This document shows, piece by piece, positions 7,994-52,423 of a stretch of 64,000 nucleotides of DNA. The notes beneath the pieces were generated by a model. The model saw nothing but the letters and a program-made list of their open reading frames with translations, ran no database searches and was not told the origin of the DNA. The position numbers and the translations under genes were made by a program. Position 1 is the stretch's first letter, and each line of letters opens with the position of its first letter. The stretch is from Limisphaerales bacterium (GTDB lineage: Bacteria; Verrucomicrobiota; Verrucomicrobiia; Limisphaerales; JAYPXF01), in contig JBLFYM010000009.1 of NCBI GenBank assembly GCA_047608975.1, forward strand, positions 15,826 through 79,825. Reading direction: 5' to 3'.

Positions 7994-9573
7994 TTACGAT
8001 TCCCCTTCTTGCGTGGCGGTTCCGCGGCGTGCGACTCCCTGCCCGCCTTCCAGATATCTACGGTGGCCGTGTTCTTCCTTTTGGGGCCAGGCGTCGAACG
8101 GCCTCGGTCAACATAACTCTGAAGCAATTGAGACAACTTTGCGACCACCTGCGGATGTCGGGCTTGGACGTTCTTCGTTTCACCAATGTCCGCATCCAGA
8201 TCAAACAACTGAAGCACCGGCATTTCGCTGAAATCGCTACGTCCGGGACGCGGAGAGCTCCAACCTCCCGAACCCGGGCACAGCGCCAACTTCCACTTGC
8301 CCTGGCGAATCGAAAACGTGCCGTTGATCGAATGATGCACCGTTGCCTCCCGCAATGGGTTCTTATCCCGCCCCAACAATGCCGGGAGAAAACTCACACT
8401 GTCTTCGGCCGCATTCTTCGGAACCCGTTGCTCAATGATGGCAGCAGCGGTCGCGAAGAGGTCGCTCTGACAAATCGTCTGCGAACTGATCGTGCCCGCC
8501 TTCACCTTCCCGGGCCAACGGGCGATGAATGGAACGCGATGTCCACCCTCGAAGATATCCGCCTTGTGCCCGCGATAGACATCACTGGGAAAATGTCCTT
8601 TCGCGGCGAGCTCTGCGAACTTGGCCTGCGGTGAACACCCATTGTCCGTCGTAAAGATCAGCAGCGTGTTGTCGGCCAGTCCAGTCCGATCCAAGGCCTT
8701 CATCACCTGGCCAACAGTCCAGTCAACCTGCATCGTGAAGTCGCCGTATTTGTTCAGCCCGCTCTTGCCCAGAAATTCCTTGGTCGGACTGATCGGTGTA
8801 TGTGGGGCGTTCAACGGGAAGTAGACAAAGAACGGTTTCCCGGCTTTGGATCGCGCCGCGTTGTCACCGATGAACTTCACGGCTTCCTCCGTGATTCGTG
8901 GAAGCACATCCACATCTTCGAAATCCACATCAGCCGGGCCCTTACGAGGAAAACCCTTGGTGACAATCTTCGTCACCAGCGGCTTGTCGTTCCTAATGAA
9001 CACATAGGGCGGCATGTCGAGTGACGCACTGATTCCGAAGAAATAGTCAAAACCCACCGTGGTCGGTCCCTGCTTCACGGGCTTCAGGTAGTCGACCTCG
9101 TAAGCATCGGCGAAATCCTTGACGAAGGTGTCGCCATCGTCTGCATAGCCGCCCCTCTTGAGTGGCCAATTCATTCCCATATGCCACTTGCCGATCGCCG
9201 CGGTCCGATAGCCATTCTTTTGCAGAAAGTTTCCCACGGTAATCCGATCGGGCTCAATCAAACGGCGTGACCACCCCCAGCAGACGCCACTCTGCAACCG
9301 TGATCGCCAGTTGTAGCGCCCGGTCACAATGGCATAGCGCGTGGGAGTACAGACCGACGAACTGGAATGCGCATCGGTGAACGCCATTCCTTCAGAAGCC
9401 AACTGATCCAGATGCGGCGTCTTGATCTTGCACCGCTCACTCAAGACGTCCACATCCCCCACCCCCATGTCGTCCGCGAGAATGAAGATGATGTTAGGAT
9501 TCGCTGCCGAGAGAAATCCGACAATCGGTGTAAGAAACACCAGGGCACAGAGGGAGGCAGTTTTGATCAGCAT
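7990..9573 (-). CDS. Formylglycine-dependent sulfatase (arylsulfatase family)
   Basis: Signal peptide, then PNIIFILADDMGVGD and the sulfatase signature SSSSVCTPTRYAIVTGRY (C-x-P-x-R). GKWHMG follows downstream. Confidence 0.9.
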   Translation of the reverse strand: MLIKTASLCALVFLTPIVGFLSAANPNIIFILADDMGVGDVDVLSERCKIKTPHLDQLASEGMAFTDAHSSSSVCTPTRYAIVTGRYNWRSRLQSGVCWGWSRRLIEPDRITVGNFLQKNGYRTAAIGKWHMGMNWPLKRGGYADDGDTFVKDFADAYEVDYLKPVKQGPTTVGFDYFFGISASLDMPPYVFIRNDKPLVTKIVTKGFPRKGPADVDFEDVDVLPRITEEAVKFIGDNAARSKAGKPFFVYFPLNAPHTPISPTKEFLGKSGLNKYGDFTMQVDWTVGQVMKALDRTGLADNTLLIFTTDNGCSPQAKFAELAAKGHFPSDVYRGHKADIFEGGHRVPFIARWPGKVKAGTISSQTICQSDLFATAAAIIEQRVPKNAAEDSVSFLPALLGRDKNPLREATVHHSINGTFSIRQGKWKLALCPGSGGWSSPRPGRSDFSEMPVLQLFDLDADIGETKNVQARHPQVVAKLSQLLQSYVDRGRSTPGPKRKNTATVDIWKAGRESHAAEPPRKKGNRK

Positions 9574-9708
9574 GATTCCCCATGGTTTAGCCCATTACAG
9601 AAAACGAGCAAGAACTCTGCACGCAGCAATTCCACCCAAGCCATTGTGGGGCAAGTCGCCCTGATTAAGCACTTCCGGAAGCGCGCACTCTGCCTTACCA
9701 TAGGCAGC

Positions 9709-11688
9709 ATGCCCAAGGAACCGAGGTCCACGCCGCCCGCAAACGGCATGGACCTCGGTATCCCGATACTGACAGCGATAGTTTTAACAGTGGCTGGGTT
9801 GGGATTGTGGTTTCAGTTTGGCCGCGAGCCGACCCCAAACACCATCAGGGTATCGCCGCCGCCGGTCACCACACCAGGCGGCTCAGAGATCGTTTACACC
9901 AATGGACAACATCCCCAGGGCTTGACTGCGGCCATGCCAAAAATCGAACCGCGTGACGGGTATGTCGGATCGGACGTCTGCCTTGAATGCCATGCCCAAA
10001 ACCATGAATCATGGTTTAATTCATACCATCGCACAATGACCCAAAAAGCCACCGCTGATGTGGTGATGGCGGATTTCGACAACGTTCAAGTCCGCATAGG
10101 CCCCAAACCTGAGGTCTACAACCTGAGCGTGAGCCAAGGCCTGTGTTTTGTGGAAATGGGCGAGCAACACAAACTACCGTTCTCGAGACCGAACGCGCGC
10201 ATGCGCTTTCCGATCGCAATGACAACCGGTTCACATCACATGCAGGTGTACTGGTTTCCGCTCCAAGATGGTGCGCTGGGCATGCTCCCGATCGCCTATC
10301 TCAAGGCCGATCGGCGTTGGGTTCCGCGTTCGTCCACATTCCTGACGCCCCATACCGATCTCCTTGGGGTGGAACCAGCGCGATGGAACATAGGCTGCGT
10401 TCACTGCCATACCACCCATGGAGATACCGGTCTCTCTCAACGAAACGGCGTTCCCGAGTACAACACACGGAGTGCGGAACTCGGAATTTCCTGCGAGGCC
10501 TGCCACGGTCCCGCCGCGAAGCACGTTGCGCTCCGGCGTAAAAAAGACGTAGCCCCGGTGGATGACCCAATCGTTAATCCCGCGAAGCTTTCCCCTGCTT
10601 TGTCCGCCCAGACCTGCGGTGGCTGCCACAGTTTCAGCCTGCCACATTCAGAGAACATCACTCACCCGGCCGGGGAACCGTTAACCGCTAGCCGCGCCAT
10701 TCGACGATACGATGAAGCAACCAAAGATTACCTTCGCCGACAGTACGAAAACCTGGGATTGAGCGACGGGGAATTGGAAGACGCGTTGAGCGCGGATTTC
10801 GAAGGCAGTTTTTGGCCGGATGGGATGGTGCGCATTGCCGGGCGCGAGTACAATGGGATGCTCGACACCAAGTGTCACACGGCCGGGGAACTGTCCTGTG
10901 TTTCTTGCCACCAACTTCACAAACCTCGCAAAGATCCCCGTTCATACAAGGCCTGGGCTGACGACCAGTTGCACTCCGGGTTTCGAACTGACAAGGCATG
11001 TACCCAATGTCACGACCCGGCCGCGTATTCAGCAACCACCCATACCCACCACGCCGCCGCATCCAGTGGGAGTCGTTGCTACAACTGCCATATGCCGCAC
11101 ACCACCTACGGTGTATTGAAAGCGATGCGCAGTCACACAATCACCAGCCCCACGGTGCTGGAGTCCACCAAATACGGTCGCCCCAATGCCTGCAATCTCT
11201 GTCATCTAGATCAGACCCTCGATTGGACCGCGCACCATCTGGCTGAACGCTACGGACAAGCGGTTCCTCGGCTGAGTGATGATCAGAAGACGATATCTGC
11301 CGCCCTCAGCTGGGCACTCGAAGGCGATGCCGCCCAGCGCGCCCTGATTGCGTGGTCCATGGGATGGCAGCCCGCCCAAGAGGCATCGTCAGCGGATTGG
11401 CTGACGCCGTATCTCGCCTTCCTCATGACCGACTCCTACGACGCCGTGCGCTACATCGCACATCGGTCTCTGAAAAGTCTTGGTGTATCCGATGCCGACT
11501 ACGACTTCATCGCCGCTCCCGATTTACGAAGCCGAAGCGTGAATCAGATCAGAACCCTCTGGCTCAGGCAGCCACACAAAAAGATTCCCCCAACTGTTCT
11601 CATCAATCCAGATCTCAAAATTCAACATCAGGAGATCGACCGGCTCTTGGCCCGCAGGAATCAGCGACGGATTAGAATGCACGAGTGA
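9709..11688 (+). CDS. Membrane-anchored octaheme c-type cytochrome with a HEAT-like C-terminal region
   Basis: ORF 9367..11688. Its first part is antisense to the sulfatase, so I prefer the start at ATG 9709 (MPKEPRS...), which is followed by a TM helix. There are eight CxxCH motifs: CLECH, CVHCH, CEACH, CGGCH, CVSCH, CTQCH, CYNCH and CNLCH. Confidence 0.8.
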   Translation: MPKEPRSTPPANGMDLGIPILTAIVLTVAGLGLWFQFGREPTPNTIRVSPPPVTTPGGSEIVYTNGQHPQGLTAAMPKIEPRDGYVGSDVCLECHAQNHESWFNSYHRTMTQKATADVVMADFDNVQVRIGPKPEVYNLSVSQGLCFVEMGEQHKLPFSRPNARMRFPIAMTTGSHHMQVYWFPLQDGALGMLPIAYLKADRRWVPRSSTFLTPHTDLLGVEPARWNIGCVHCHTTHGDTGLSQRNGVPEYNTRSAELGISCEACHGPAAKHVALRRKKDVAPVDDPIVNPAKLSPALSAQTCGGCHSFSLPHSENITHPAGEPLTASRAIRRYDEATKDYLRRQYENLGLSDGELEDALSADFEGSFWPDGMVRIAGREYNGMLDTKCHTAGELSCVSCHQLHKPRKDPRSYKAWADDQLHSGFRTDKACTQCHDPAAYSATTHTHHAAASSGSRCYNCHMPHTTYGVLKAMRSHTITSPTVLESTKYGRPNACNLCHLDQTLDWTAHHLAERYGQAVPRLSDDQKTISAALSWALEGDAAQRALIAWSMGWQPAQEASSADWLTPYLAFLMTDSYDAVRYIAHRSLKSLGVSDADYDFIAAPDLRSRSVNQIRTLWLRQPHKKIPPTVLINPDLKIQHQEIDRLLARRNQRRIRMHE

Positions 11689-11736
11689 CGCTCGGGCTTC
11701 CCTGTTCGAGACAACAGGTAACGCATCAAGTGTCAT

Positions 11737-13272
11737 TCATCCGACCGTTTCTGCGGCATGTCGCGATTGGCGCTTGGGGCCTGCGACCGCTTTCGCATCC
11801 TTCCCCCTCGCCGCCTCACTTATGTGCCCTCTCAGCGGAAGGGGGATATCGTTTCTCCCCGCACACTGATAGTCAGCCAACAACCTGGAGGCCGCCAGTT
11901 CCGGATCCACACCGTTCATCTCAGTCAGATACCCGAACACAAAGCCAACGAGTTGGGTCAGTGCAATCCCATGGCGACGCCCGGCTTTCTCCGCCAGATA
12001 GTCTGCAAAACTCAGAAAGGCCTGAAACGGCGATCTGTCTCCCGCCCAGATCAATTCTCTTGAGCTCACAAAATTCCCACTGTTCCCGACCAGATCCCAG
12101 TAACGGGCGAAACGACGCATCCGTTGGAACGTGGCGAAATCCAGATCTCGATTTGAGAGTATTTCAAACGGGGGATGAGGACTGTAGATCATTTTGAATT
12201 CGTCATCGTGACGAATGATCGGTGTTCCTTTGAGTCGCTTCAGAATGCCTATCTGAATCTCCTGCGGTCGCATTTTCACGAGCCGATCGAATCCCGTGCC
12301 AAACGAGTCCAAGGTTTCGCCGGGTAATCCCACAATCAGATCGGCGTGGATATGCACCCCGGTATCCCCACGTAGAAAGTGGAAGTTGTCCGCCATCTTG
12401 TCGTAGTTCTGGCGGCGGCTGATATGGGCCGATACCTCGTCGTTAAATGTCTGGATCCCGACCTCGAACTGAAGCGCGCCCGGTGGGAACTTTTTGATCA
12501 ATTCCCGCAGTCCTTCAGGAAGACGATCAGGGATCATCTCGAAGTGCAAAAACAGCCCGTCAAAGAAACGTTCCAGGAAGAATTCCAGAATCGCCTCACT
12601 CACCCGCATATTGAGGTTAAACGTCCGGTCCACAAACTTGAACTCCTTGGCTCCCCGTTGAAGCAATCCCTCCATCGCACCGAGGAACCGATCCAGATCA
12701 AACGCACGAACCGGGATGTCGAGTGAGGACAGGCAAAACTCGCAGGTGAAGGGGCAACCGCGGGAGGCTTCAACATAGATCACGCGATGAGACAAATCCT
12801 CTTCAGTGTAGAGATCGTAGGGCAGTTCCAAGTCCGCCAATTTGGGCAGCAGCGCCGGAATAACCCGCGAGGTTGGGGCTGCGCCGTCCAGAATCTGAGA
12901 GCAAACGCGTCCGAATTCCTGGTCCGCTTCTCCAGTGATCGTATAGTCGGCCAGCTCGACGATGGACTGTTTCCCCGTATCAAAACTGACCTCAGGACCA
13001 CCCAACAGAATCTTCACCGCCGGTGCCAGGCGACGAATCAGCGCGATAACTTCCTCTGACTGGGTCGTGTTCCAAATGTAAATCCCGAAGCCGATAATCT
13101 TGGGATTCAACGCCAGGAGTCGCTCAACGATTTCGAGCGGACGCTGGTTGATGTCGAATTCAACCATCGTTGTTCGGTCCTTCAATTCGCCCATATTCGC
13201 GAGCAGATATCGCAAGCCAAACGAGGCGTGGATATACTTGGCGTTGAGCGTGGTGAGAACGATTTCCGACAC
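11737..13272 (-). CDS. B12-binding-domain radical SAM protein (DUF4080-type)
   Basis: The N-terminus VLTTLNAKYIHASFGLRYL is typical of the DUF4080 rSAM family. The SAM cluster motif is EASRGCPFTCEFC (CxxxCxxC). Confidence 0.8.
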   Translation of the reverse strand: MSEIVLTTLNAKYIHASFGLRYLLANMGELKDRTTMVEFDINQRPLEIVERLLALNPKIIGFGIYIWNTTQSEEVIALIRRLAPAVKILLGGPEVSFDTGKQSIVELADYTITGEADQEFGRVCSQILDGAAPTSRVIPALLPKLADLELPYDLYTEEDLSHRVIYVEASRGCPFTCEFCLSSLDIPVRAFDLDRFLGAMEGLLQRGAKEFKFVDRTFNLNMRVSEAILEFFLERFFDGLFLHFEMIPDRLPEGLRELIKKFPPGALQFEVGIQTFNDEVSAHISRRQNYDKMADNFHFLRGDTGVHIHADLIVGLPGETLDSFGTGFDRLVKMRPQEIQIGILKRLKGTPIIRHDDEFKMIYSPHPPFEILSNRDLDFATFQRMRRFARYWDLVGNSGNFVSSRELIWAGDRSPFQAFLSFADYLAEKAGRRHGIALTQLVGFVFGYLTEMNGVDPELAASRLLADYQCAGRNDIPLPLRGHISEAARGKDAKAVAGPKRQSRHAAETVG

Positions 13273-13358
13273 AGCGTGGGAAGTTGAACAGAAAGCAGGG
13301 ATAGGACACCAGCGGATTCAGCAGGATGCCCGCTAGCTCCAATATCAGCCGACCGAGG

Positions 13359-14129
13359 TTATTTCATGCACGCTGCCTGGCGCGCATCATCGACGGTCTC
13401 AATCCCGTCCTTGGTCAGCACTCGGATCGTGGCAAAGGCCTGCCGTTCAGGGTCGACTCCCCCGGTCGCAGAATCAAACTCAGCGGCGGTCATCAGGAGG
13501 CGGAGCGCAAAGCGAACGGCCTCATCACGCGACATCTCGGAAGGATTGGTATTTCCGTATTTCGATTCGTAGCTGATGACGCTGCGGATGGTCATGGACC
13601 CGGATCCGGTGGTCGCAAAACCAACCGCCTGGAACTGGGCACCAAGCGGATCGTAAAAGAAGATCTGTGGCCGTGGTGAATTGGAACTCTGATCCACACC
13701 CGCAAATATCGGAACCACAATCCCAATTCCTTGCAGGGTCATCGGAACATTGTCGCGCAGCAAGCGGGCCAATGCCCGCACCTTGGCAGCGAGGCTCAGC
13801 GGCTGAAGTTGGCTCCGGCGATAGTATTCGAAGGAGGTTTGCAGGACTCGGGCCATTTCGAAGGCAGTGGCAGGCACTCCGGCAATGGCCAGCAGCGAAG
13901 TCGCGTCGAGTTCGATCACTTTCTCCACGGAATCCGTGACGATCAGATTTCCGGCGGTGGCGCGACGATCCCCCACCATCATAACGCCCTCGGAAAATTC
14001 GAATGCGAAGACGGTTGTACCATGGGTCTGCTCAGGGGCGGCAGACGTCGCGCGCACGTTCAACGGTGGAATGGAACGGGCAGTCAACAGGGAAAGAAAA
14101 TCTCCGGCAATCTGATTGGATTCGCTCAT
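13359..14129 (-). CDS. prcB: 20S proteasome beta subunit (PrcB-like) with a 37-aa propeptide
   Basis: The processing site is ...EQTHG/TTVFAFEF. Counting from that Thr gives Asp17 (VGDRR) and Lys33 (SVEKV) in canonical Ntn-hydrolase spacing. The ATG overlaps the stop of the upstream small ORF (ATGA). Confidence 0.85.
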   Translation of the reverse strand: MSESNQIAGDFLSLLTARSIPPLNVRATSAAPEQTHGTTVFAFEFSEGVMMVGDRRATAGNLIVTDSVEKVIELDATSLLAIAGVPATAFEMARVLQTSFEYYRRSQLQPLSLAAKVRALARLLRDNVPMTLQGIGIVVPIFAGVDQSSNSPRPQIFFYDPLGAQFQAVGFATTGSGSMTIRSVISYESKYGNTNPSEMSRDEAVRFALRLLMTAAEFDSATGGVDPERQAFATIRVLTKDGIETVDDARQAACMK

Positions 14130-14299
14130 TGTCCGGTGCGTTGCCGATAGCGCTTGGCCTGGTCCGGATCGACTTTTTTCATCCGTTTCAAGAGATCCTG
14201 AACATCGGGCTTCTCCACCTTGGGTTCGCTGGGTCCCGCGCCATCTCCCCCGGGACCGTCTGGTCCGCCGGAACGTTCTTTTTGTTTTTGATCAGGCAT
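14126..14299 (-). CDS. UBact/Pup-like small protein modifier (57 aa)
   Basis: An internal ATG at 14299 of track ORF 14126..14365 lies 2 nt after the dop stop (TAG, 14302-14304). The product is MPDQKQKERSGGPDGPGGDGAGPSEPKVEKPDVQDLLKRMKKVDPDQAKRYRQRTGQ. It has a disordered G/P/K/E-rich N-terminal half, a helical C-terminal half and a terminal RTGQ. It sits in the canonical position between dop and prcB. Confidence 0.8.
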   Translation of the reverse strand: MPDQKQKERSGGPDGPGGDGAGPSEPKVEKPDVQDLLKRMKKVDPDQAKRYRQRTGQ

Positions 14300-14301
14300 T
14301 G

Positions 14302-15828
14302 CTATTCGGATTTGTGGTTCAGCAGAAACCGGAATTCGTCCGGGGTTTCGGCTTTTTCGATGCACGAACGATAATGCAGAACGTCAGCCGGCGCGAACAA
14401 ATCGAGCAGCGAAATCTTGATCTCCTGTTGCTCCCCTTGCAGCACCACATGATCCCATTGTGCGGCGAGCACCTGTTCCGGGAATTTGCCGATGCAACGT
14501 CCGCGAATAAATGCGCGGGTGGTATCCGGTGGTTCTTTCTGCGCGGCACGTGCCGTGGCCGGATTTGGAATTGATCGAATGGAACCGCTCTGCTCGAGCC
14601 CGAAGTACAAACCAGATTCGAGATCCAGTCGGTGATACTCCAGATCGAGGCTTTGCACCCATGGATCGTCCGGGGCCAGTCCTTGGGACTTTTGGAACTC
14701 GGTAATCAAGGCGTGCTTGGCAACCCAATCCACCCGATCACGGCATCGCAGCGGGTCCGCTTCGAGATCATTCAGGACACGCTCCCATTCCGTAACGGTC
14801 CAGGACGCGTCGGCATGATCCAGCACACATGACTCACGAACCGCATCAAGATAGCGACGTTGAACATCGATCGCATTCGAACCGGAACGATCCTTCAAGG
14901 TCAGGAACCATTGAAAATTCGGATCCCGCGAAATCGATTTTAGAGTATCGACCGGGGCGACGAGTTCAGGCGGTTCCAGATCCGGATTGCGTATCAGGGC
15001 TTCGAGAACCAGAGCCAGTGTTCCGACTTTCAAGCGCGTTGCAAATGGGGACATGTTGGCATCTCCGAGAATGACGTGAAAGCGGCGCCAGTCCGCCGGA
15101 TTCGCATGGGGCTCGTCCCGGGTATTGATCAGCGGACGTTTCTGCATGGTGTCCACACTCTGCCTCACGGTGAAGAAGTCGCTCCGCTGGGAGATCTGAA
15201 AATTGGACGCGAGCAGTTTGTCTTCGCCCTCCACTGCGAACTTCCCCGCGCCGGCAAAGATCTGGCGCGTGACCATGAACGCCTCGATGGAATGCACCAA
15301 TCGTTCCCATGAAAGCGACCGGGGAAGCAGGTAGTTCTCGTGACATCCGTAGCTGTGTCCCCGGAAATCGGTGTTGTTCTTGTAGATTCGAACCGTGGCG
15401 CCCCGTTCCGCCGAGAGACGTTCCGCACAATCCATCACAATCTGTTCGCCCGCCCGATCGTGCGCGGCCAGTTCGTCGAGCGTAGAACATTCAGGGGTGC
15501 AGTACTCCGGGTGGGCGTGATCGTTGTAGAATCGCGCACCGTTACTCAGGGCAAGATCGCTCTTGATCTCGGCGAAGGTAAGTTCGCGCTGGGCGTCTTG
15601 GGCAAAGTAGTTGGATTCATCGTAGTCCTGCCGCAGTTCCTCCACTTTGAACCCGCGCACATCCGCATGCGGATCTTCGGCGGCGTAGTCCCATTTCATT
15701 CGCACCCCGGGCGCAAGCGCACTGCGCACCAGGGCGATGGACTCCGCGACAACGTCCAAGTCTTCGGCATCATCTCGCGTGATGCCGTACTCAGTTTCGA
15801 TGCCAAAATGGATCAACAGTTTGTCCAC
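14302..15828 (-). CDS. dop: Pup-ligase-family enzyme, Dop-like (deamidase/depupylase type)
   Basis: GIETEYGI at the N-terminus. RMKWDYAAEDPHADVRGF is followed by an extra loop, then SNGARFYNDHAHPEYCTPEC and YGCHENYL. DHAHPEY plus the loop resembles Dop as I recall it, not PafA (DVGSHPEY, no loop). Confidence 0.75.
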   Translation of the reverse strand: MDKLLIHFGIETEYGITRDDAEDLDVVAESIALVRSALAPGVRMKWDYAAEDPHADVRGFKVEELRQDYDESNYFAQDAQRELTFAEIKSDLALSNGARFYNDHAHPEYCTPECSTLDELAAHDRAGEQIVMDCAERLSAERGATVRIYKNNTDFRGHSYGCHENYLLPRSLSWERLVHSIEAFMVTRQIFAGAGKFAVEGEDKLLASNFQISQRSDFFTVRQSVDTMQKRPLINTRDEPHANPADWRRFHVILGDANMSPFATRLKVGTLALVLEALIRNPDLEPPELVAPVDTLKSISRDPNFQWFLTLKDRSGSNAIDVQRRYLDAVRESCVLDHADASWTVTEWERVLNDLEADPLRCRDRVDWVAKHALITEFQKSQGLAPDDPWVQSLDLEYHRLDLESGLYFGLEQSGSIRSIPNPATARAAQKEPPDTTRAFIRGRCIGKFPEQVLAAQWDHVVLQGEQQEIKISLLDLFAPADVLHYRSCIEKAETPDEFRFLLNHKSE

Positions 15829-15874
15829 GGATCTGTTCGAATGAGGCCCACGAATAATTTTGGACTGGCCACCG

Positions 15875-17575
15875 CTAAACCGCCGACGACGAACTTCGTT
15901 TCTTACGCACCGGTCCGAGTCGAACGACGTTCTCCGGATCGAAGTCGGTCAGCTTCAACCAGTCTTCAGTGAGATCCGTCGCCGGAAAGAGATCGTTTTC
16001 TTCATACTCCAATCGCAAAGCGTTCGCCAAATCGTCCCGGCTGATAGCAGGGTCTTTCGCGCCATCCACCGCGCGCCGGATGGCAAGACTCTTGGCCCGT
16101 TCGACCACTGCGGCAATGATGGCCCCGCTCGCGAGGTCGCCGCGATGCAGAACCTCCCGGCGGCCACTCCGATAGTCAACCTCCAGAAATTCATTCTCCG
16201 CGCTACGCGCAAAGTGGCTCGCTGAAACAAAATCAATCAAAGCATCGCGGTCTTCCGCCATGGGGAGAGAATCCTTGAGGTAGATATCGTAGATGGCCCG
16301 TGCGCCGTCAGCGTCCGGCCGTCTGACCCGAATCTTGCGATCGATCCGTCCGGGACGAAGGATTGCCGGATCGATCAAATCAGCGCGATTCGAGGCCAGG
16401 ATAACCACTGTATTCTGAAGCGGTTCAATCCCATCCATCTCTGTGCAAAACATCGGCACCACCGTACTGAGCATGCTGTTGAACCTCCCTGCATGCCGCG
16501 TGCCTAGAATTGATTCAGCCTCGTCGATGAAGAGGAATGCGAGCGAGCCGTCTTTCGCACGCTCCCGGCATTGGGCAAAGAGATCGCGAACCTGACGTTC
16601 ACTTTCTCCCACCCACATGTTCAGAATCTCCGGCCCTTTCAGATGGAGAAAAAACTCCGGTCGATCCACGCCTGTCTCGGTAAGAATCTGTTGCCGCAGG
16701 TTGTACGCGGTGGCTTTGCCCAACAGGGTCTTCCCGCAGCCGGGAGGTCCATGCAGAAGGAAGCCTTTGGGAACATGATGCTCGAACTTTTCGAAGAGAT
16801 CGCGATGCAGAAAAGGCAGTTCGATCGTATCCCGAATTGCCGCCAATGCCTCGTCCTGACCACCAATCGCAGACCACGGAACCGCAGTCACCGTCTCCAG
16901 CGAACGCTCGACCCGTTTTCCAATCCCAATCACCTCCAACGCCACGCGTTGATTCGAATCAAGCCGGATATCCATCCCGGTCTTGAGTTTCTCCTTGGCC
17001 AGCAAATCCGATCGCTGGACCACCAATGATCCTCCCCCACCCTCTTGTCCAATCCTCAAACGACCTTCGGAAAGCAATTCATCGACTCGAACTATGGGCC
17101 CGTTCTTGTCAAATCCCAACGCAGCCACAATGGCATAGGCTTCGTTGCAAAGCAGACGCTGGCCGATCTGCAATTCCGTCACCGGAATAGTGGGATCAAC
17201 CTTGCATACGTAGTCAGTCCCACTGACGCAGACATGAACCTGCTCACGTTCAAGAGCCCCGAGAAAAGTTCCCATGCGTAGTGCAGGAGCGCGCAGTTTG
17301 TCCACGATCTCGTCGAACTTCTCCAACGCCTCGCGGGCGGCATCATTGGTCTCCTCCATCGCGGCGACGCGTTCGCGAAGATAGACGAGGTCGATGAGGG
17401 CACTGTTTCGGGAAGGGATCTTGGAAGCCACCAAGTCGAGAATCTGAAGAATGGAAAGTTGGTCCAATTCTTCCCGACTGAGCAGACCGCTGAGCGACAC
17501 GTCTCCCTCATCCATCTCAAAAGGATCAGCGAGGGGATTGGACTGTTTACGCAGCGGATCCGGCGGTTCATCCAT
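15875..17575 (-). CDS. mpa: Proteasome-associated AAA+ ATPase (Mpa/ARC-like)
   Basis: N-terminal coiled coil, then OB-like region. Walker A is GPPGCGKTLLGKA, pore loop MWVGESE, Walker B FLFIDEAES. It lies directly upstream of dop on the same strand. Confidence 0.85.
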   Translation of the reverse strand: MDEPPDPLRKQSNPLADPFEMDEGDVSLSGLLSREELDQLSILQILDLVASKIPSRNSALIDLVYLRERVAAMEETNDAAREALEKFDEIVDKLRAPALRMGTFLGALEREQVHVCVSGTDYVCKVDPTIPVTELQIGQRLLCNEAYAIVAALGFDKNGPIVRVDELLSEGRLRIGQEGGGGSLVVQRSDLLAKEKLKTGMDIRLDSNQRVALEVIGIGKRVERSLETVTAVPWSAIGGQDEALAAIRDTIELPFLHRDLFEKFEHHVPKGFLLHGPPGCGKTLLGKATAYNLRQQILTETGVDRPEFFLHLKGPEILNMWVGESERQVRDLFAQCRERAKDGSLAFLFIDEAESILGTRHAGRFNSMLSTVVPMFCTEMDGIEPLQNTVVILASNRADLIDPAILRPGRIDRKIRVRRPDADGARAIYDIYLKDSLPMAEDRDALIDFVSASHFARSAENEFLEVDYRSGRREVLHRGDLASGAIIAAVVERAKSLAIRRAVDGAKDPAISRDDLANALRLEYEENDLFPATDLTEDWLKLTDFDPENVVRLGPVRKKRSSSSAV

Positions 17576-17866
17576 GCCCCGACTGTAACTCCGCGGAGGA
17601 GGATTTCAAACTGAATGGTGGAAACGAGATTTAACGTGTCCCCCCTCAGACCATTGGCAGGCCCCCTAATTCGCCGGACGGCAGAGTCACCCCCGACTAA
17701 ATCACCCCGCTCTCCCAACATTGCGTGCTCGACGAGTTTCGAAAATGGAGTGAGGGAAAATCCTCCGGCAGGAAACGGCATTGGACGCAGACCCAGCCAA
17801 TCTCGCATTTTCCCGGCCACCGGGGACTTGTGCTACGCCCGCCTCCGTGCATCCTCCAAATCACCC

Positions 17867-18772
17867 ATGAATACCACGCGAAGAAACTTCCTCAGTAGAG
17901 CTGCACTTGGCACGGCCGCGCTCCCCTTTCTCACCCCGCCATCAGCAACCGCAGCTACCAAGACGAAACCACTTTTCCAGATTTCGCTCGCTCAATGGAC
18001 GCTGGTCAAAGAACTCAAGGCCGGTCGGATCGACAACCTGGAATTCGCAGAGGTCGCGAGCCGCCACCAGATCATGGCGCTGGAATACGTGAATCAGTTC
18101 TTCATGGATAAGGCGGAAAATCGCCCCTACCTGAAACAGATGAAACAACGGGCCAGCGACGCCGGCGTGAAAAGTCTGCTCATCATGTGCGATCGCGAAG
18201 GACGCATCGGAGATCCGGACGCCGCAAAGCGGAAGCAGACAGTGGAGAACCATCGCAAGTGGATCAGCGCGGCGAAATTCCTCGGTTGTCATTCCATTCG
18301 AGTGAACGCCGGAAGTTCCGGGACTTGGGACGAACAACGCGATCTGGCGGCCGACGGACTCGCCCAGCTCACGGTCCATGGTGCCGATGCGGGAATCAAT
18401 GTAATCGTGGAAAATCACGGTGGCCTGTCCAGCAATGGCAAATGGCTGGCATCGGTCATTCGGCAGGTGAATCATCCGCGCTGCGGAACGCTTCCAGATT
18501 TCGGGAATTTCAAGATCGCCAACGGGGATACCTACGACTGCTACCTGGGAGTGAAGGAACTTATGCCGTGGGCAAAAGGGGTTTCAGTCAAGGACCACGC
18601 TTGGGACGACCAAGGCAACGCGATCAAAGTCGATTTCGTGAAAATGATAGAAATCGTTTTGGAGACCGGTTTCCGAGGCTATTGCGGAATCGAATTCGGC
18701 GGCTACGCCGGTTTGAATGATTCGCGCAAGGCATTGGAAAATGCCCGCAGGGCATTGGCTGTGAAGTTTTAG
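17867..18772 (+). CDS. Tat-exported sugar phosphate isomerase/epimerase (xylose-isomerase-like TIM barrel)
   Basis: ORF 17615..18772. The internal ATG at 17867 gives MNTTRRNFLSRAALGTAALPF, a twin-arginine signal. The TIM-barrel body includes GCHSIRVNAG and VIVENHGG. Confidence 0.8.
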   Translation: MNTTRRNFLSRAALGTAALPFLTPPSATAATKTKPLFQISLAQWTLVKELKAGRIDNLEFAEVASRHQIMALEYVNQFFMDKAENRPYLKQMKQRASDAGVKSLLIMCDREGRIGDPDAAKRKQTVENHRKWISAAKFLGCHSIRVNAGSSGTWDEQRDLAADGLAQLTVHGADAGINVIVENHGGLSSNGKWLASVIRQVNHPRCGTLPDFGNFKIANGDTYDCYLGVKELMPWAKGVSVKDHAWDDQGNAIKVDFVKMIEIVLETGFRGYCGIEFGGYAGLNDSRKALENARRALAVKF

Positions 18773-30221: not shown

Positions 30222-30716
30222 CTACAAACTGCGCCGAATCCACTCGATGTAGTAATCCGGCCCCTCCGCTCCATACCCGGATATCTTGCTCACGAACGTT
30301 CCATCGCTCCGCAATACCGCCAGCAACGGATATCCGCCTTCCGCATCAAGTTGTGCGAACAATTGAAATTCAACAACCTCCTGCCGGGCGGGATCCTCTC
30401 CCAATATAGGAAACGTATATTTGCGAACAATCAGCTGCTCTTTCGCAAAAATTTTCCAAGCCGGTTTCGAAAACACGCCTTCCTCCAAGGCACGACAGGG
30501 CGGACAGCTCACCAACGAGTAATATAGCAAAATCACGCGATCCGAATCCGCCGCCTCTTTAACTTTCTGACTCAGCTCTGAACGGAGAGTCTCGTCGAGA
30601 CGCAAAGATTTGAGCGGCAGGCTAAGCGAGTCCTCATCCGGCGCGAGGACGTAGGAAAGTGTGACCAGATAGATCGCCACCACGATCACCCCGAAGACAA
30701 TCCAAGTTCGTTTCAT
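30222..30716 (-). CDS. Membrane-anchored thioredoxin-fold protein with a CPPC active site
   Basis: N-terminal TM helix (WIVFGVIVVAIYLVTL), then ILLYYSLVSCPPCRALE. The start overlaps the DUF1501 stop by 4 nt. Confidence 0.75.
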   Translation of the reverse strand: MKRTWIVFGVIVVAIYLVTLSYVLAPDEDSLSLPLKSLRLDETLRSELSQKVKEAADSDRVILLYYSLVSCPPCRALEEGVFSKPAWKIFAKEQLIVRKYTFPILGEDPARQEVVEFQLFAQLDAEGGYPLLAVLRSDGTFVSKISGYGAEGPDYYIEWIRRSL

Positions 30717-32164
30717 GCCAGAACCTCCTTCACAACGCGCCCATACAGATCTGTCATCCGATAATCGCGCCCCTGAAAGCGGTGAGTCAGGGTTTCATGA
30801 TCAATTCCCAACTGATGAAACATCGTGGCGTAGAGGTCATACACCGACATCGGATCCGCAGCTATGTTGAAGCACCAATCATCAGTCGCACCGTGACTCA
30901 TTCCCGCCTTCACCCCGCCGCCCGCCATCCACATGGTGAAACAACGACCGTGATGATCGCGACCGAACTTCGCCATGCTCGGATTCGAACCTTGCGAAAA
31001 AACAGACCGACCAAATTCACCACCCCAGATCACCAGGGTATCATCCAGCAGCCCGCGTGATTTGAGATCACTGATCAAAGCCGCCGTGGCCTGATCAGTC
31101 TGACCACACTGCCGTGGGATGTCCTCAGGAATGTTGAAGTGGGCATCCCATCCACGATGAAACAACTGGATGAATCGCACGTCCCGCTCGGCCAATCGCC
31201 GGGCCAGCAGACAATTGTAGGCATAAGTCCCCTGCTCCCTCGCATCTGCGCCATACAAGTCAAAGGTCGCATCTGACTCACCCGACAGATCGGTGAGTTC
31301 CGGAACCGACGTCTGCATCCGAAACGCCATTTCGTATTGCGCGATTCGAGTGCGAATCTCCGGGTCTCGATACTCCTGAAAATTCGCTTCGTTCAGTCGG
31401 GCGATGGCATCCAAAGTCTTTCGCCTCAGATCGCGGGACATCCCGGCCGGATTATTGAGATACAGAACCGGTTCCGTCGCGCCACCAAACCGGACTCCCT
31501 GAAATGTGGACGGCAAAAAGGAACTCCCCCACATCCGGTCATAGATCGGAATGCTGCTTGGTTTCCCATTTGAAACCATCACCACGAATGCCGGCAGATT
31601 CTGATTCTCGCTCCCCAGCCCGTAAGACACCCAGGCACCCGCGCTCGGGCGGCCCGGAAACTGCAGACAGCTCTGCATGAATGTCGCCGCCGCATCGTGA
31701 TCAATCTGCGGCGTGTTCATCGACTTGATCACGCAGAGATCGTCAATGACGCGGGCCGTGTGCGGCAACAAATCCGATACCCATGAGCCGTTCTGCCCAT
31801 GCTGCTTAAATCCCCACGGAGATCTCATCACCGGAAAACTCGCCTGCCCCGCCGTCATGCCGGTCAGCCGCTGATCCCCCACGACGGACTTGGGAATCTC
31901 CTGTCCATGCACCGTGTCGAGAAACGGCTTGTAATCGAAGGTCTCCATCTGCGATGGACCACCGTGCTGAAACAGAAATATGACCCGCTTCGCCTTGGGG
32001 GCGAATTGAGGAAACCTCGGCGGCAAGGGATTCAGTCCACCATCCTTTGCCAGAAGATCCTGTTTCAACAGATCCCCCAGCGCTGCCGCACCAACGCCAC
32101 CCGTCATGCGGCCGAAGAAGCTACGGCGCGACATCACATTCCGGAATGTGTCCTGCGGATTCAT
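30713..32164 (-). CDS. DUF1501 (sulfatase-like) protein with a Tat signal
   Basis: RRSFFGRMTGGVGAAAL, KRVIFLFQHGGPSQMETFDYKP, and the C-terminal GGEFGR...GRDHH motif. Confidence 0.85.
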   Translation of the reverse strand: MNPQDTFRNVMSRRSFFGRMTGGVGAAALGDLLKQDLLAKDGGLNPLPPRFPQFAPKAKRVIFLFQHGGPSQMETFDYKPFLDTVHGQEIPKSVVGDQRLTGMTAGQASFPVMRSPWGFKQHGQNGSWVSDLLPHTARVIDDLCVIKSMNTPQIDHDAAATFMQSCLQFPGRPSAGAWVSYGLGSENQNLPAFVVMVSNGKPSSIPIYDRMWGSSFLPSTFQGVRFGGATEPVLYLNNPAGMSRDLRRKTLDAIARLNEANFQEYRDPEIRTRIAQYEMAFRMQTSVPELTDLSGESDATFDLYGADAREQGTYAYNCLLARRLAERDVRFIQLFHRGWDAHFNIPEDIPRQCGQTDQATAALISDLKSRGLLDDTLVIWGGEFGRSVFSQGSNPSMAKFGRDHHGRCFTMWMAGGGVKAGMSHGATDDWCFNIAADPMSVYDLYATMFHQLGIDHETLTHRFQGRDYRMTDLYGRVVKEVLA

Positions 32165-34983
32165 TCTTTGCTTAGGGTCGTGTCGAGATTCAACAACACG
32201 TTGGCTACTGTCACATAGGCGGCCAATTCGACGGAATCCAGAACCTCACCGGGCTCAAGCGCAGCCAACTCATCCGCAGCGCTTCGATCGTTCCGGAATT
32301 CGTTGTGCGCGGCATTCCAAGCGTCCTGCAATACATCCAGCTCGATCCCCCTCGCAGCGCGGGACGTTGCGAGTTTCAGACCGAATCTCAGACGCGAGCG
32401 CAGATCACCAGCCGAGGCCATCATCCTGCGCCCCAGACCTTGGGCCGCATCCACAAAGCCACGCTCATTGAGCGCAGCCAACGCCTGCAAAGGTGTGTTC
32501 GTTCGCCTCGCCCCAACGCTGCAAAACTCACGGTCCGGGGCATCGAACAAAAACAGACTTGGCGGCGCGATCGCCCGACGCCAATAGGTGTAAAGACTTC
32601 GACGGAAAAGATCTTTCCCGGTTGAAGACTCATACGCCCGGTTGCTGGTAAGCCGCCACCGGCCTTCCGGTTGATGTGGAAACACCGAATCCCCTCCAAC
32701 TGTGCCATCCAACAATCCTCCAATTGACAAGGCCTGGTCGCGCAATACCGCTGCGGAGAGCCGATGCCTCGGGCCACGTGAAAGGAATCGATTCTGCGGA
32801 TCACGCTTCCAACTTTCGGAAGTGCCCGATGATGACTGTCGGTAAGTTGAACTCGTCACGATCAACCGAATCAGCGCTTTCAGATCCCAACCCGAACGAA
32901 CGAACTCAGTTGCCAGCCAATCTAGCAATTCCGCCTGAACGGGCCGGGGAGACTGCACTCCGAAATTCTCTGGAGTCTCGACGAACCCAAGACCGAACAA
33001 GTGCTGCCACACGCGGTTCACTGCCACCCGGGCGGTGAGCGGATTTCTGCCATCCACGAGCCAACGCGCGAACCCAAGTCGGTTGCGTGGCTGTCCTGCG
33101 GCCATCGGCGGCAGAATCTTTGGAGTAGCCGCGACAACCCTGGCTCCGAGCTGATCGTATTGACCACGAATACGCATGTGACTCCGTTTCCCAGGTCCTT
33201 CCACCATCACCATCGTCGTTGGCAGTTTGCCGACAAACTCACGGCGGATCGTCTTCGTGGCATCAAGATTCGCGACCGCATTTCGAATCTCCACACTCGC
33301 ACCAGTTCCGAGGAAACACTCGCGAATCAACTGCATCTGCGCGGGGGATCTCCGATTTGTCGAGATACCCGCGATCTGCGGAATCGTTTGCTTCACAGCG
33401 AGCATCGCAACTTCCGCTGCACCGAGATCCCGGCGGTAGAATCGCAATTCGTCAATCGCTCCACGAAATCCCGGCGCGATTTCACTGTAGCCGAGGAAGA
33501 GCGGCTCCTGGATCTTCTTACCATCTATCGCGCTGTCCTGAATCACTCGGATCGGTGCCTCCTGACCATTCAGATAGACATGGTAGGCCAGCAATTGGAC
33601 CCGTCCGTCGCAGGTCAACGCGAAGTGATACCAGTGATTACGTTTCAGTTGCTCCTTCAATTCGAACCAGGTGACTGCGTAGTTCCAACGCGACGACAAC
33701 ATGAACCGAAGTTTCCGTTTTTTGATCTCAACAACCGTCCCCATCCGCAGATCATCCGGGTCGTTGAGTTCTGAAAGAATCACGCCATCGCGCAAATCAT
33801 CCGCCTTGAACCAGAACGAAACCGTGAACCGATCCCGCCCCCAGAGATTGCCAACCTTCTTGTCGAACTCGTAGTAGGAGCGACCGTCGAACTTCATCGC
33901 GCTTCCCAGAACACCCGGAACGAACCGGACCTGTCCCCGTTGGGACTTTCCTTTTGGTTCCATGTCATCAAGCGGGAAGTGGTTCACCAAGCCCTTGGGG
34001 ATGATCCTGTAGGTAGTGCTCGCTTGAATGGCACCTTCCCAATTCACTTGCCCAGCCGCGATCTGCGGCTCCAATTCAGTCAGCTTTTGCTGAGCCTGAT
34101 CCACGTCGGAATCAAGGTGGCGAAGCTCTTGACCTTGCTCACGGGTCGGCGTTTTGACGCGCGGATGCGAGTTGAAGAGGATGGCCTGCCCGTTCTCCGG
34201 CACCTGGTCGAAGAACGCGAGCATCTCGAAGTATTCCCGGGAAGTAATCGGATCAAACTTATGATCGTGGCAGCGAGCGCAGACCATGGTCAGGCCTAAC
34301 CACACGGTGGCCGTCGTTTCGAGCCGGTCAGCCGCGTTTTCAAAAAGAGACTCTGCCTGAATCGTTCCGCTCCCCTTGTCATACCGATGATTACGATTGA
34401 AGCCAGTGGCCAGAATCTGATCCGGGGTAGGCTTGGGAAGCAGATCCCCCGCGATTTGTTCGATCGTGAACTGGTCATATGGCAGGTTACGGTTAAACGC
34501 CTCGATCACCCATTCCCGCCACCGCCACATATGACGCTGCGCATCGCTCTGAAACCCATCCGTGTCCGCGAATCGCGCCGCCTCCATCCAGCCCCACGCG
34601 AAATGCTCACCAAATCGCGGCGAAGCCAGAAAGCGATCCACCAGACGCTCGTAAGCTCCGGAAGAGCGATCCGCTTGAAACTCCGCCAACTCACCTGCCG
34701 AAGCCGGCAAACCACGGAGATCCAACGAAAGCCGCCGGATCAGAATAGCCCGCGACGCCTCCGCCTGAGGCATCCAAGAACGCGGGCCCATCCGTGCCCG
34801 CGCAATTCGATCAACAGCGTTTCGACACCAGTCCAGATCAACCGTCGGTAGTGCCGATCGAACCGGCTGACTGAACGCCCAGTGCGCTTCCCCATCCCCA
34901 CTGGTCCCACTCGCCGGCCCAGCAACGCCAAGCGAAGCCAGCGAGAACACAAACAGCAGATTGATTGGCAGACAGCCGGGCAT
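32161..34983 (-). CDS. DUF1549/DUF1553 (PSD1-type) protein with an inserted LamG-like domain
   Basis: DUF1549 strings (IRRLSLDLRGLPAS, FLASPRFGEHFA, CARCHDHKFDPI). A LamG-like insertion (FRGAIDELRFYRRDLGAAEVAML). A DUF1553 C-terminus (TCVGRRERTNTPLQAL-like: CSVGARRTNTPLQAL). Confidence 0.85.
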   Translation of the reverse strand: MPGCLPINLLFVFSLASLGVAGPASGTSGDGEAHWAFSQPVRSALPTVDLDWCRNAVDRIARARMGPRSWMPQAEASRAILIRRLSLDLRGLPASAGELAEFQADRSSGAYERLVDRFLASPRFGEHFAWGWMEAARFADTDGFQSDAQRHMWRWREWVIEAFNRNLPYDQFTIEQIAGDLLPKPTPDQILATGFNRNHRYDKGSGTIQAESLFENAADRLETTATVWLGLTMVCARCHDHKFDPITSREYFEMLAFFDQVPENGQAILFNSHPRVKTPTREQGQELRHLDSDVDQAQQKLTELEPQIAAGQVNWEGAIQASTTYRIIPKGLVNHFPLDDMEPKGKSQRGQVRFVPGVLGSAMKFDGRSYYEFDKKVGNLWGRDRFTVSFWFKADDLRDGVILSELNDPDDLRMGTVVEIKKRKLRFMLSSRWNYAVTWFELKEQLKRNHWYHFALTCDGRVQLLAYHVYLNGQEAPIRVIQDSAIDGKKIQEPLFLGYSEIAPGFRGAIDELRFYRRDLGAAEVAMLAVKQTIPQIAGISTNRRSPAQMQLIRECFLGTGASVEIRNAVANLDATKTIRREFVGKLPTTMVMVEGPGKRSHMRIRGQYDQLGARVVAATPKILPPMAAGQPRNRLGFARWLVDGRNPLTARVAVNRVWQHLFGLGFVETPENFGVQSPRPVQAELLDWLATEFVRSGWDLKALIRLIVTSSTYRQSSSGTSESWKRDPQNRFLSRGPRHRLSAAVLRDQALSIGGLLDGTVGGDSVFPHQPEGRWRLTSNRAYESSTGKDLFRRSLYTYWRRAIAPPSLFLFDAPDREFCSVGARRTNTPLQALAALNERGFVDAAQGLGRRMMASAGDLRSRLRFGLKLATSRAARGIELDVLQDAWNAAHNEFRNDRSAADELAALEPGEVLDSVELAAYVTVANVLLNLDTTLSKE

Positions 34984-35418
34984 AAATCAGAACTATAGTT
35001 CCGACGCCAGTTCTTGCACAGAATTTCATGGAAATCCGTTGCCCCCGTGTCGCCCCACGCTGGTGCAAAGATTAGCTTCAACGGAGACGAGCCGGAGGGG
35101 ATGTCCCACCACTTCTGGAGAGCTCGACTACGGGATGTGAAGTGCACATCAAATGGAGAACGAAAAGCATAGGCAAAGAAATGGGGAATTCTCCTCAATG
35201 GATCCTATTCCGCGGCCCAACATTCCTTTGCCTGCTCAGGAAGTTTGGAGCTGAAGAGGTGACCCTATGAAGCAAAACAAGCTACGGTAGCAGCCGACCT
35301 GAGGCGGCTCAAACTCAACTGCGAAACACGCGAATAAATAACGAACAATTTTTATCCATCCATAAATGCCACAGTTTCCCTCTATTTTTTTCAGTGTCAG
35401 GAGCCAAGGCTTCAATCG

Positions 35419-36855: not shown

Positions 36856-36856
36856 G

Positions 36857-51247: not shown

Positions 51248-51300
51248 TCATACTATTTTTCAACAATAACCGAAGATACAGAGAAAGGTCAGAATAGAAC

Positions 51301-52413
51301 ATGGGTGCTTATGCGATGTCGGATTTGCTGCAGTTGATGGTCTCCGAGGGGGCCGCCGATCTGCATGTTCGGGTGGGAATCCCACCTTGCTACCGGGCTC
51401 ACGGGACGCTCGAGCGAATCCAAGGGCCGCCTTGTGCTCAGGACGATGTCGAGGAATTGATGACCAGCATTTGCAGCGAGGATCATATTCAACAGATCCG
51501 GACCAATGGTGGCGCTGACTTCGGATTTGCATTCGGTGAACTGGCCCGTTTCCGGGTAAGTGCCTTCAAGGAACGCGGTAATTTCGCCCTCGTTCTCCGG
51601 CAGATCCCAACGGATCTCCTGCCCATGAGCGTCATTGGCCTCTCGCCCAATCTGATCGACGAACTGCTTCACAAACCACGTGGAATGATCCTGGTCACAG
51701 GCCCGACAGGTTCCGGTAAATCCACGACGCTGGCATCAATGGTAAACATGATCAACGAAGAGCAGGATCATGCCCATATCATCACGATCGAAGATCCGAT
51801 CGAGTTTTACCACAAACACAAGAAGGCGGTAATTACACAGCGCGAGGTCCACATTGATGTCCCCAGTTTTGCCGAAGCCCTGCGGCGCGCGTTGCGTCAG
51901 GATCCGGAAGTCATCCTCGTGGGCGAGTTGCGCGATCTCGAAACAATTGAAGCCGCGCTGACCGCTGCGGAAACCGGTCACGTTGTCTACGGTACGCTGC
52001 ATACGAATTCAGCGGCGAAGACGATCGATCGTATCGTCAATGCCTTTCCGATCAACGCTCAGGAGACGGTCCGAATCCAGCTGTCTACCGCGCTGGTATG
52101 CGTGATTGCACAGATTTTGGTACCGACCTGTGACAAGCCAGGGCGCGTGGCTGTGCACGACATCATGGTCCAGACGCCATCGATTGCGGCGCTCATCCGT
52201 GACAACAAGACATTTCGTATTCCTTCCGATCAACAAACCGGAGCCAAGTACGGCATGGTGACCTTGGATATGGGAATGCTCGACTGGTATCGCAAAGGCC
52301 GCATCGCCCGCGAAGAAGTCATTAACCGCTGCCTTGATCCTCAGGGTATCCTGGCCAAGATCGCCGAGGTGGATGCCGAGATCGAAGCCGAGGTCGACGA
52401 CGACGACGATTGA
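51301..52413 (+). CDS. pilT: Type IV pilus retraction ATPase PilT
   Basis: About 370 aa without the N-terminal extension. ASDLH-like AADLHVRVG, Walker [11 protein letters not shown], and [15 protein letters not shown]. The tail is acidic. Confidence 0.9.
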
Positions 52414-52423
52414 TACCAAGCCT

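Follow-up and report, generated by a model that had tools for sequence, protein, structure and literature searches.

A Limisphaerales UBact-proteasome gene cluster that ends after prcB

A stretch of 64,000 nucleotides (nt) from a Limisphaerales bacterium (contig JBLFYM010000009.1; the whole stretch is called the window) contains four genes of the UBact-proteasome system, which encode the proteasome-associated ATPase Mpa, the Pup-ligase-family enzyme Dop, the ubiquitin-like modifier UBact and the proteasome beta subunit PrcB. Within the 64 kb and about 12 kb of flanking sequence, four of the six components of the system were found, and prcA, which encodes the alpha subunit, and pafA, which encodes the UBact ligase, are not among them. 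It appears rather probable that the cluster is the 5' four-gene part of the canonical UBact-proteasome operon and belongs to an ordinary system whose operon was split, with prcA and pafA located elsewhere in the genome. Both genes would then persist, with biochemical roles that are expected to match those in the actinobacterial Pup system, and the system probably works as it does in relatives with a complete locus.

Gene order and protein families of the cluster

The cluster and its neighbour comprise five genes, all read in one direction from the minus strand, in the order mpa, dop, ubact, prcB and a B12-binding radical S-adenosylmethionine (rSAM) gene with a DUF4080 domain (Table 1). The distances are 46 nt between mpa and dop, 2 nt between dop and ubact and 86 nt between prcB and the rSAM gene, and ubact and prcB overlap by 4 nt. 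A first-pass annotation of the window had given the same five positions and the same strand and had described the string as ending after prcB, with the rSAM gene following 86 nt later on the same strand; all of this is correct. The gene order of the window recurs on 22 contigs, and the six places displayed come from six different samples; it is therefore not an assembly artefact. An open reading frame (ORF) of 79 amino acids with a GTG start, which overlaps dop, was set aside as a version of ubact; the start is the ATG at 14299, which gives 57 amino acids as in public assemblies.

Mpa has an N-terminal coiled coil, two proteasomal-ATPase OB domains and one AAA module. Its score on TIGR03689, 423 bits, is below the cut-off of 505, and its residues 45-564 align to Mpa of M. 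tuberculosis (7PX9/7LJF) with 302 bits. The C-terminus reads ...SSSAV and thus lacks the GQYL motif. The absence of this motif was considered as a marker of altered docking to the alpha ring and was rejected, since it is common to complete UBact loci: their Mpa proteins, which are encoded together with an alpha subunit, do not have it either and terminate in ..QII, ..QIV or ..GVV. Judging by these termini, GQYL is not diagnostic in the UBact branch.

The Pup-ligase-family enzyme scores 425 bits on the Dop model TIGR03688 and 324 bits on the PafA model; the former value lies below the equivalog cut-off of 492 bits of a model that was built on actinobacterial sequences. Acidothermus Dop (4B0R) is matched over the whole length with 334 bits, whereas the alignment to PafA (4B0T, 211 bits) only begins at residue 88. 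The GxExE motif is present as GIETEYG and the catalytic-Asp motif as YNDHAHPEY. The catalytic Asp lies 89 residues from GxExE, compared with 59 residues in PafA of the UBact type and 45 in that of actinobacteria. The Dop loop, which inserts about 40 residues ahead of this Asp, is therefore present. Compared with Table 1 of PMC7947786, the stretch D-H-A-H-P-E-Y-C-T-P also contains the Dop-type residues, namely His-Ala after the Asp and a Pro three residues after HPEY. By these sequence features, the enzyme is a clear Dop orthologue.

UBact exceeds the cut-offs of both PF20513 (78.7 bits, cut-off 27.8) and NF033388 (80.5 bits, cut-off 35). It ends in RYRQRTGQ, and the R-[TS]-G-[EQ] end and the position directly downstream of dop are likewise found in relatives; a UBact search returned 537 homologues. 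PrcB scores 94 bits on PF00227, and its best model is that of the bacterial beta subunit, TIGR03690, with 169 bits and thus below the cut-off of 192; HslV models only reach 19-26 bits. The nearest solved relatives are PrcB of Rhodococcus and M. tuberculosis (110-114 bits), in which mature residue 1 aligns to residue 38 of the query. A propeptide of about 37 amino acids is therefore predicted, with cleavage after ...THG and in front of TTVFAFEFSEGVMMVGDRRATAGNLIVTDSVEK, which makes Thr38 the catalytic Thr1 (G/TTV). Asp17 and Lys33 are present as well, and the catalytic residues are kept in all relatives. The NCBI annotation calls orthologues of the window's PrcB (P0127, P0142, P0156 and others) "proteasome subunit alpha"; these proteins have the beta model as their best match and contain Thr1, Asp17 and Lys33, and counts of alpha subunits taken from annotation would therefore mislead.

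Table 1. Features of the cluster in the window
Feature	Position	Strand	Description	Supporting matches
mpa	15875-17575	-	proteasome-associated AAA ATPase, 566 amino acids	PF17758, PF16450, PF00004
dop	14302-15828	-	Dop-type Pup-ligase-family member (deamidase/depupylase type), 508 amino acids	PF03136, 484 bits
ubact	14126-14299	-	ubiquitin-like modifier UBact, 57 amino acids	PF20513, NF033388
prcB	13359-14129	-	20S proteasome beta subunit, 256 amino acids	PF00227, TIGR03690
rSAM gene	11737-13272	-	B12-binding radical SAM protein with DUF4080 domain, 511 amino acids	PF02310, PF04055, PF13311
promoter-like site	17582-17609	-	TTGAAA-16-TACAGT, just upstream of mpa	sigma-70-like match

Search for prcA and pafA

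Hidden Markov models (HMMs) of PrcA and PafA were built from 25 and 32 sequences, respectively, all of which belong to canonical UBact loci. The best match of the PrcA model across the window and the related loci had an E-value of 1, and the best in the window itself one of 7.8; the PafA model matched only dop in the window. A tblastn search of the 64-kb DNA with PrcA and PafA proteins of the same clade returned nothing, and HMMs built from the Dop and PrcB proteins of relatives found no second member of either family among the six-frame ORFs of the window. The statement of the first-pass annotation that no PrcA-like or PafA-like ORF occurs in these 64 kb was thus borne out by the models and by tblastn. 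Pfam analysis of 20 further genes of the window revealed no other ligase or proteasome-like protein; all of them are typical of the PVC group, namely DUF1501, PSCyt/PSD1, pilus ATPase and sugar epimerase genes. Public contigs extend past the ends of the window by about 7.5 kb on one side, where nuo genes are located, and by 4.8 kb on the other, where DctM and epimerase genes are found, and neither prcA nor pafA is among the Pfam-labelled called genes of these flanks.

Hidden alpha subunits were also considered among the ORFs upstream of mpa and downstream of prcB in relatives, but none of them matches the PrcA model; these flanking ORFs encode FabI, SecA, a prepilin-type protein, a phosphate transporter, toxin-antitoxin pairs and proteins of no family. 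Among the best 150 representatives at 50% identity, which were screened for a verrucomicrobial PafA, P0305 of Gemmatimonadota is the only UBact-type PafA, and in leave-one-out tests the left-out lineage falls outside the best 120 matches to outgroup PafA or PrcA. Viral contigs scanned with the PafA of the clade yielded nothing, and no description of a prcB without prcA was found in the literature searched.

Six further proteins of the Pup-ligase family (P0273, P0312, P0316, P0342, P0365 and P0368) have a Dop-type Asp-His-Ala/Gly motif and a short N-terminal segment and lack the Dop loop; they are neither textbook Dop nor textbook PafA. Many proteins like this group occur in public data.

Complete and truncated loci in one clade

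A scan with one genome per species found 26 loci, almost all of which are labelled Verrucomicrobiota, Limisphaerales or Pedosphaera and whose Dop proteins are 63-79% identical to that of the window. In the 14 species with enough downstream sequence, the cluster stops after prcB; the next gene varies and is often located on the opposite strand. Protein searches further revealed that the protein family of the window is very large in metagenomes, and a closed chromosome of 4.31 Mb (L035; ERZ28548085 contig_37743) from the window's lineage belongs to it. The arrangement is not private to one genome; it recurs in two lineages that are separate from each other within a large clade of the Limisphaerales type.

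Members with the order mpa-dop-ubact-prcB-prcA-pafA could also be found within this clade by the UBact search and by context look-ups (L022, L122, L124, L126 and L129). The proteins of these complete loci are 69-75% (Mpa), 61-65% (Dop) and 66-68% (PrcB) identical to those of the window (Table 2) and are thereby as close to it as those of many truncated relatives. In L022, which is one of the 26 species loci, the contig ends 79 residues into PrcA, which directly follows prcB and is 89% identical to that of L122 over this part. The alpha subunit was confirmed by TIGR03691 in outgroup loci, by the PrcA model in L125 and L126 and by tblastn with the PrcA of L122 in L022, L124 and L125, and the PrcA proteins of the clade, which have 246-247 amino acids, carry the JGI label "proteasome alpha subunit". 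In L122, L126 and L129, prcA is located at 10944-11684, 8287-9027 and 10938-11678 and pafA at 11791-13203, 9024-10463 and 11675-13090, respectively; PafA of the clade has no Dop loop and carries the motif DEPPGNGGFLFNGGRxYxDMGHLEY. Complete and truncated members, 60-75% identical, thus coexist in one clade, and the truncated state is therefore derived. Outside the clade, a metagenome scan with more distant Dop sequences found 80 loci, about 40 of which have the order mpa-dop-ubact-prcB-prcA-pafA. The last gene of the canonical outgroup loci encodes a PafA-type paralogue, which has no Dop loop and carries the motif DEPPGNGGFLxNGGRxYxDMGHxEYAxPEC.

Table 2. Identity of the proteins of complete same-clade loci to those of the window
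Locus	Mpa	Dop	PrcB
L122/L123	69%	64%	67%
L124	not in locus	65%	66%
L126-L128	75%	61%	68%
L129 (complete locus)			

A neighbour-joining tree of Dop and PrcB was calculated from 760 columns with 200 bootstraps. The whole clade is supported by 100% of the bootstraps, the group of the window (window, L007, L008, L009 and L021) by 98% and a second truncated group (L010 to L028) by 100%. Only 1.5% of the 200 bootstraps unite the two truncated groups, and 73% place the complete loci with the second one. The metagenome-assembled genomes WRPG01, JBDKJY01, CAZCBE01 and CALQJI02 are members of the second truncated lineage. The method is a simple one, and earlier versions of the tree gave the same picture. 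On this tree the six-gene cluster comes out as ancestral, and since the truncated groups do not cluster, prcA-pafA left it at least twice. In both truncations, the cluster broke up at its 3' end.

Other arrangements are seen in the relatives as well. The more distant L125 (10174-12463) has an OsmC-family gene between prcB and prcA and purine-synthesis genes after prcA, and pafA is not encoded in cis. In marine loci of low guanine-cytosine content (L099, L100, L114 and L117; e.g., L099 9983-14965), the order is mpa-dop-prcA-ubact-prcB-pafA, and L100 contains an additional truncated prcB-like ORF (11481-12119). Only mpa and dop are found in L023 and in L033, a chromosome of 6.03 Mb inside the clade (ERZ25039534 contig_1519). 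The intact mpa-dop pair of L033 (8155-11533) resembles the situation in a sister clade (L102, L103, L105, L107, L109-L113, L115 and L116), whose Mpa is 54-56% identical; in all of these, ubact, prcB, prcA and pafA do not occur within 10 kb. L012 carries mpa, a toxin-antitoxin pair and dop and lacks ubact-prcB. Such insertions of toxin-antitoxin genes between mpa and dop occur in several relatives of the second truncated lineage; ParD/ParE and Phd/YefM-like type II toxin-antitoxin genes and a DMP19-like gene are located there in L012 (8674-9946) and L019 (8119-8673). In L031, mpa, dop and prcB survive only as fragments within 1.8 kb (9227-11050), L029 (9983-11294) has a frameshifted dop, with mpa, ubact and prcB not present, and L030 (9983-11506) has dop alone. 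In one complete-locus lineage, a gene for a WYL-domain regulator, which resembles actinobacterial PafBC, lies directly upstream of mpa (L126 2703-3641, L127 655-1590 and L128 2706-3641), and rho is located upstream in L126, L129 and L033.

Selection, rates and conserved sites

None of the four ORFs is interrupted in the window or in at least 14 species related to it, and the divergence between these species is saturated at synonymous sites. Within both truncated lineages, the ratio of non-synonymous to synonymous substitution rates (dN/dS) lies at 0.04-0.17 for all four genes; it is 0.07 in one complete-locus pair. These values indicate that the four genes are functional and under strong purifying selection. 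The distances to the outgroup are equal in complete and truncated members (PrcB 0.88 compared with 0.84 and 0.87). Of the sites that are otherwise invariant, 0 of 59 in PrcB, 0 of 126 in Dop and 1 of 121 in Mpa are changed lineage-wide in the truncated lineages, which is the same as in the control, and both Dop loop and alpha-loop are the same in truncated and complete loci. Although these tests are indirect and of modest power, they all point in the same direction and give no sign of altered working in the truncated lineages; they favour the view that prcA and pafA are encoded elsewhere. The proposal of the first-pass annotation that Dop might act as the only Pup-family enzyme found no support, since this Dop has the same Dop loop and alpha-loop as a Dop that adjoins a PafA. 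The terminal Gln of UBact was also considered as a sign of a ligase-free pathway and was rejected, because UBact of same-clade complete loci ends in Gln as well.

The radical SAM gene

The protein encoded downstream of prcB contains the domains PF02310 (50.7 bits), PF04055 (54.5 bits) and PF13311 (47.3 bits), all of which are past their cut-offs. Its CxxxCxxC motif reads CPFTCEFC, and it is a class B (B12-binding) radical SAM protein with a DUF4080 domain. No characterised NCBIfam family reached its cut-off on this protein, and matches to generic B12-rSAM families remained far below theirs. No terminator-like site was found in the 86-nt gap between prcB and the rSAM gene; read-through is therefore possible, and the rSAM gene is probably co-transcribed with prcB.

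It could be imagined that the enzyme is a new partner of the system, which took over the slot of prcA and pafA and modifies, for example, UBact, PrcB or substrates. In the window, L008, L021 and L130, prcB is succeeded by this gene in the same orientation. An overlap of 4-13 nt between the stop of prcB and the start of the rSAM gene exists in L008, L021 and L130, and in the window the gap without a terminator-like site would fit as well. However, it does not follow prcB in L007 and L009/L035/L036, which belong to the same lineage, in any of the ten species of the second truncated lineage or in any complete locus, only generic B12-rSAM families are matched, and there is no known precedent that ties its family to Pup or UBact systems. 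Such a partnership is therefore very unlikely. The first-pass annotation had asked for a check of whether the prcB-rSAM adjacency is conserved across relatives; it proved to be confined to a part of the window's own lineage, which makes a functional link weak, and there is no evidence for such a link to the UBact system. In the simplest reading, an ancestral rearrangement in the lineage of the window, which would have removed prcA and pafA from the cluster, brought the unrelated rSAM gene beside prcB, where it was kept in some descendants.

Split operon, reduced system or remnant

If the operon was split, the steps of the pathway would be the usual ones. Dop would deamidate the C-terminal Gln of UBact and remove UBact from proteins, a PafA encoded elsewhere would ligate UBact to lysines, and Mpa would unfold the tagged proteins, which would then be degraded by a 20S particle consisting of PrcB and a PrcA encoded elsewhere. 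Support for a split operon comes from the dispersal of the genes in neighbouring lineages, i.e., the prcB-osmC-prcA order without pafA in cis in L125, the presence of only mpa-dop in L033 and the sister clade and the reordered marine loci, and from actinobacteria, in which unrelated ORFs can separate pafA from the locus (PMC3511204). Several points weigh against it. In the sequence around the loci, prcA and pafA were found for none of the genomes with a truncated locus; in the window they are lacking over 13 kb on one side of the cluster and 50 kb on the other, and in 14 related species within 10 kb. Deletion accounts more simply than a double relocation for the independent disappearance of one gene pair in two lineages, unless a second copy was already present in the ancestor. 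Furthermore, some relatives (L031, L029, L012 and L030) are visibly in the course of losing the system, and the loss of a single interaction surface could escape the rate and selection tests, whose power in this respect is limited.

The main rival view is that the system is truly reduced: the genome would have lost prcA and pafA by deletion, and the remaining four genes, which are clearly functional, would work without them. The absence of the pair from every truncated locus and flank and its two independent departures from the cluster, for which deletion is the simplest explanation, would be in line with this. In such a system, PrcB might form a beta-only particle to which Mpa docks, as HslU does to HslV, and UBact might be used without a PafA-type ligase, a combination that appears doubtful; Dop would then move UBact-Gln straight to lysines, or another ligase would act. 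Homo-oligomeric homologues of the proteasome, HslV and Anbu, do exist (PMC5666114), and the Gln end of UBact is a substrate that an engineered Dop variant could conjugate directly (PMC7947786). However, this end is shared by the complete loci of the clade and is thus not tied to the absence of PafA, and the engineered ligase activity required changes in exactly those elements, the Dop loop, the D-H-A motif and the alpha-loop, which the Dop of the truncated loci retains in the form seen in a Dop coexisting with PafA (PMC7947786). Neither acceleration nor a shift at invariant sites nor relaxed selection is seen in PrcB, Dop and Mpa when they are set against the clade's complete loci. A reduced system would also be in conflict with known beta-subunit assembly and Dop chemistry: to our knowledge, bacterial beta subunits do not assemble without alpha subunits. 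For wild-type Dop, no ligase activity is detectable (PMC7947786). A true reduction is therefore considered unlikely, though it keeps a real share of the probability. Far less probable still is the view that the cluster has been non-functional since the loss of prcA-pafA and is heading to pseudogenisation. While the fragments in L031, the frameshifted dop of L029 and the loss of ubact-prcB in L012, L030 and L033 could be taken as signs of decay, PrcB retains Thr1, Asp17 and Lys33 and Dop its catalytic motifs, and the intact ORFs, which persist in the window and at least 14 species despite saturated synonymous sites, together with the low dN/dS rule out a dead remnant. The first-pass annotation had left the choice between a split locus and a reduced system; unchanged rates, selection and the Dop-specific and invariant residues favour the split operon and weaken the reduced alternative.

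Comparison with known systems

The closest counterpart of the cluster is the canonical Gram-negative UBact locus (PF20513/NF033388), with which it shares the same four proteins, their order, the tight spacing, the modifier end RYRQRTG[QE] and an Mpa that ends in a hydrophobic dipeptide instead of GQYL. The difference lies in prcA and pafA, which are missing from the window's cluster and from all of the flanking sequence covered, and in the rSAM gene, which follows prcB instead. Alpha and beta subunits of Gram-negative bacteria, including verrucomicrobial ones, have been treated as a pair (PMC5666114). The actinobacterial Pup system, represented by mpa, dop, pup, prcB, prcA and pafA of M. tuberculosis, has homologous Mpa, Dop and PrcB proteins in the same gene order, and both modifiers end in a Gln that needs deamidation. 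In contrast to Pup, UBact ends in RTGQ and not in GGQ, Mpa has no GQYL tail, all equivalog models remain below their cut-offs, and the alpha subunit and the ligase are not encoded in the window's locus.

The pupylation locus of the Corynebacterium type is also naturally reduced and under selection and has kept the ATPase; however, it lacks prcB and prcA and keeps PafA, with pup directly in front of pafA, whereas the window's cluster keeps the beta subunit and lacks the alpha subunit and the ligase (PMC3511204). In the same superphylum, some Planctomycetes have single Dop/PafA-like enzymes, and Rhodopirellula and Plesiocystis have membrane-anchored ligases, in each case with one Pup-ligase-family gene next to the modifier (PMC7947786, PMC2588565). 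These enzymes are about equidistant from Dop and PafA (29-31% identity) or contain transmembrane inserts, and they are not linked to a proteasome (PMC7947786, PMC2588565), unlike the enzyme of the window, which is a Dop orthologue linked to mpa and prcB. HslUV, Anbu and BPH, which consist of beta-like subunits only, offer an analogy for an alpha-free PrcB, namely a homo-oligomeric Ntn-hydrolase ring with an AAA unfoldase; PrcB of the window, however, belongs to the true 20S beta family and has not diverged from orthologues that adjoin an alpha gene.

Other features of the window

The promoter-like site upstream of mpa is the sole sigma-70-like match in 11400-17900; shuffled sequence averages 2.4 matches, and the site is therefore not significant alone. 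Elsewhere in the window, two tandem PSCyt/PSD1 (DUF1549/DUF1553) and DUF1501 gene pairs and several sulfatase genes (30713-39193) are typical of the PVC group. Three genes for T2SSE-family (type II/IV secretion) ATPases, two of them with MshEN domains, are located in a row at 49517-54133.

Implications

If prcA and pafA are encoded elsewhere in the genome, the cluster would represent a split operon and a documented case of the break-up of a UBact-proteasome cluster in Verrucomicrobia, which took place twice and always at the 3' end. It is less likely, by some distance, that two verrucomicrobial lineages lost the alpha subunit and the UBact ligase while Mpa, Dop, UBact and a PrcB with intact catalytic residues stay under strong selection. 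A true loss would imply a beta-only particle that is served directly by Mpa, and tagging by UBact or another use of it without a PafA-type ligase. It would overturn two rules derived from actinobacteria, namely that the beta subunit needs the alpha subunit to form an active particle and that a Pup-type modifier needs the ligase PafA. The truncated lineages would then also provide a natural test case for the conversion of Dop to a ligase, which has so far only been achieved by protein engineering (PMC7947786).

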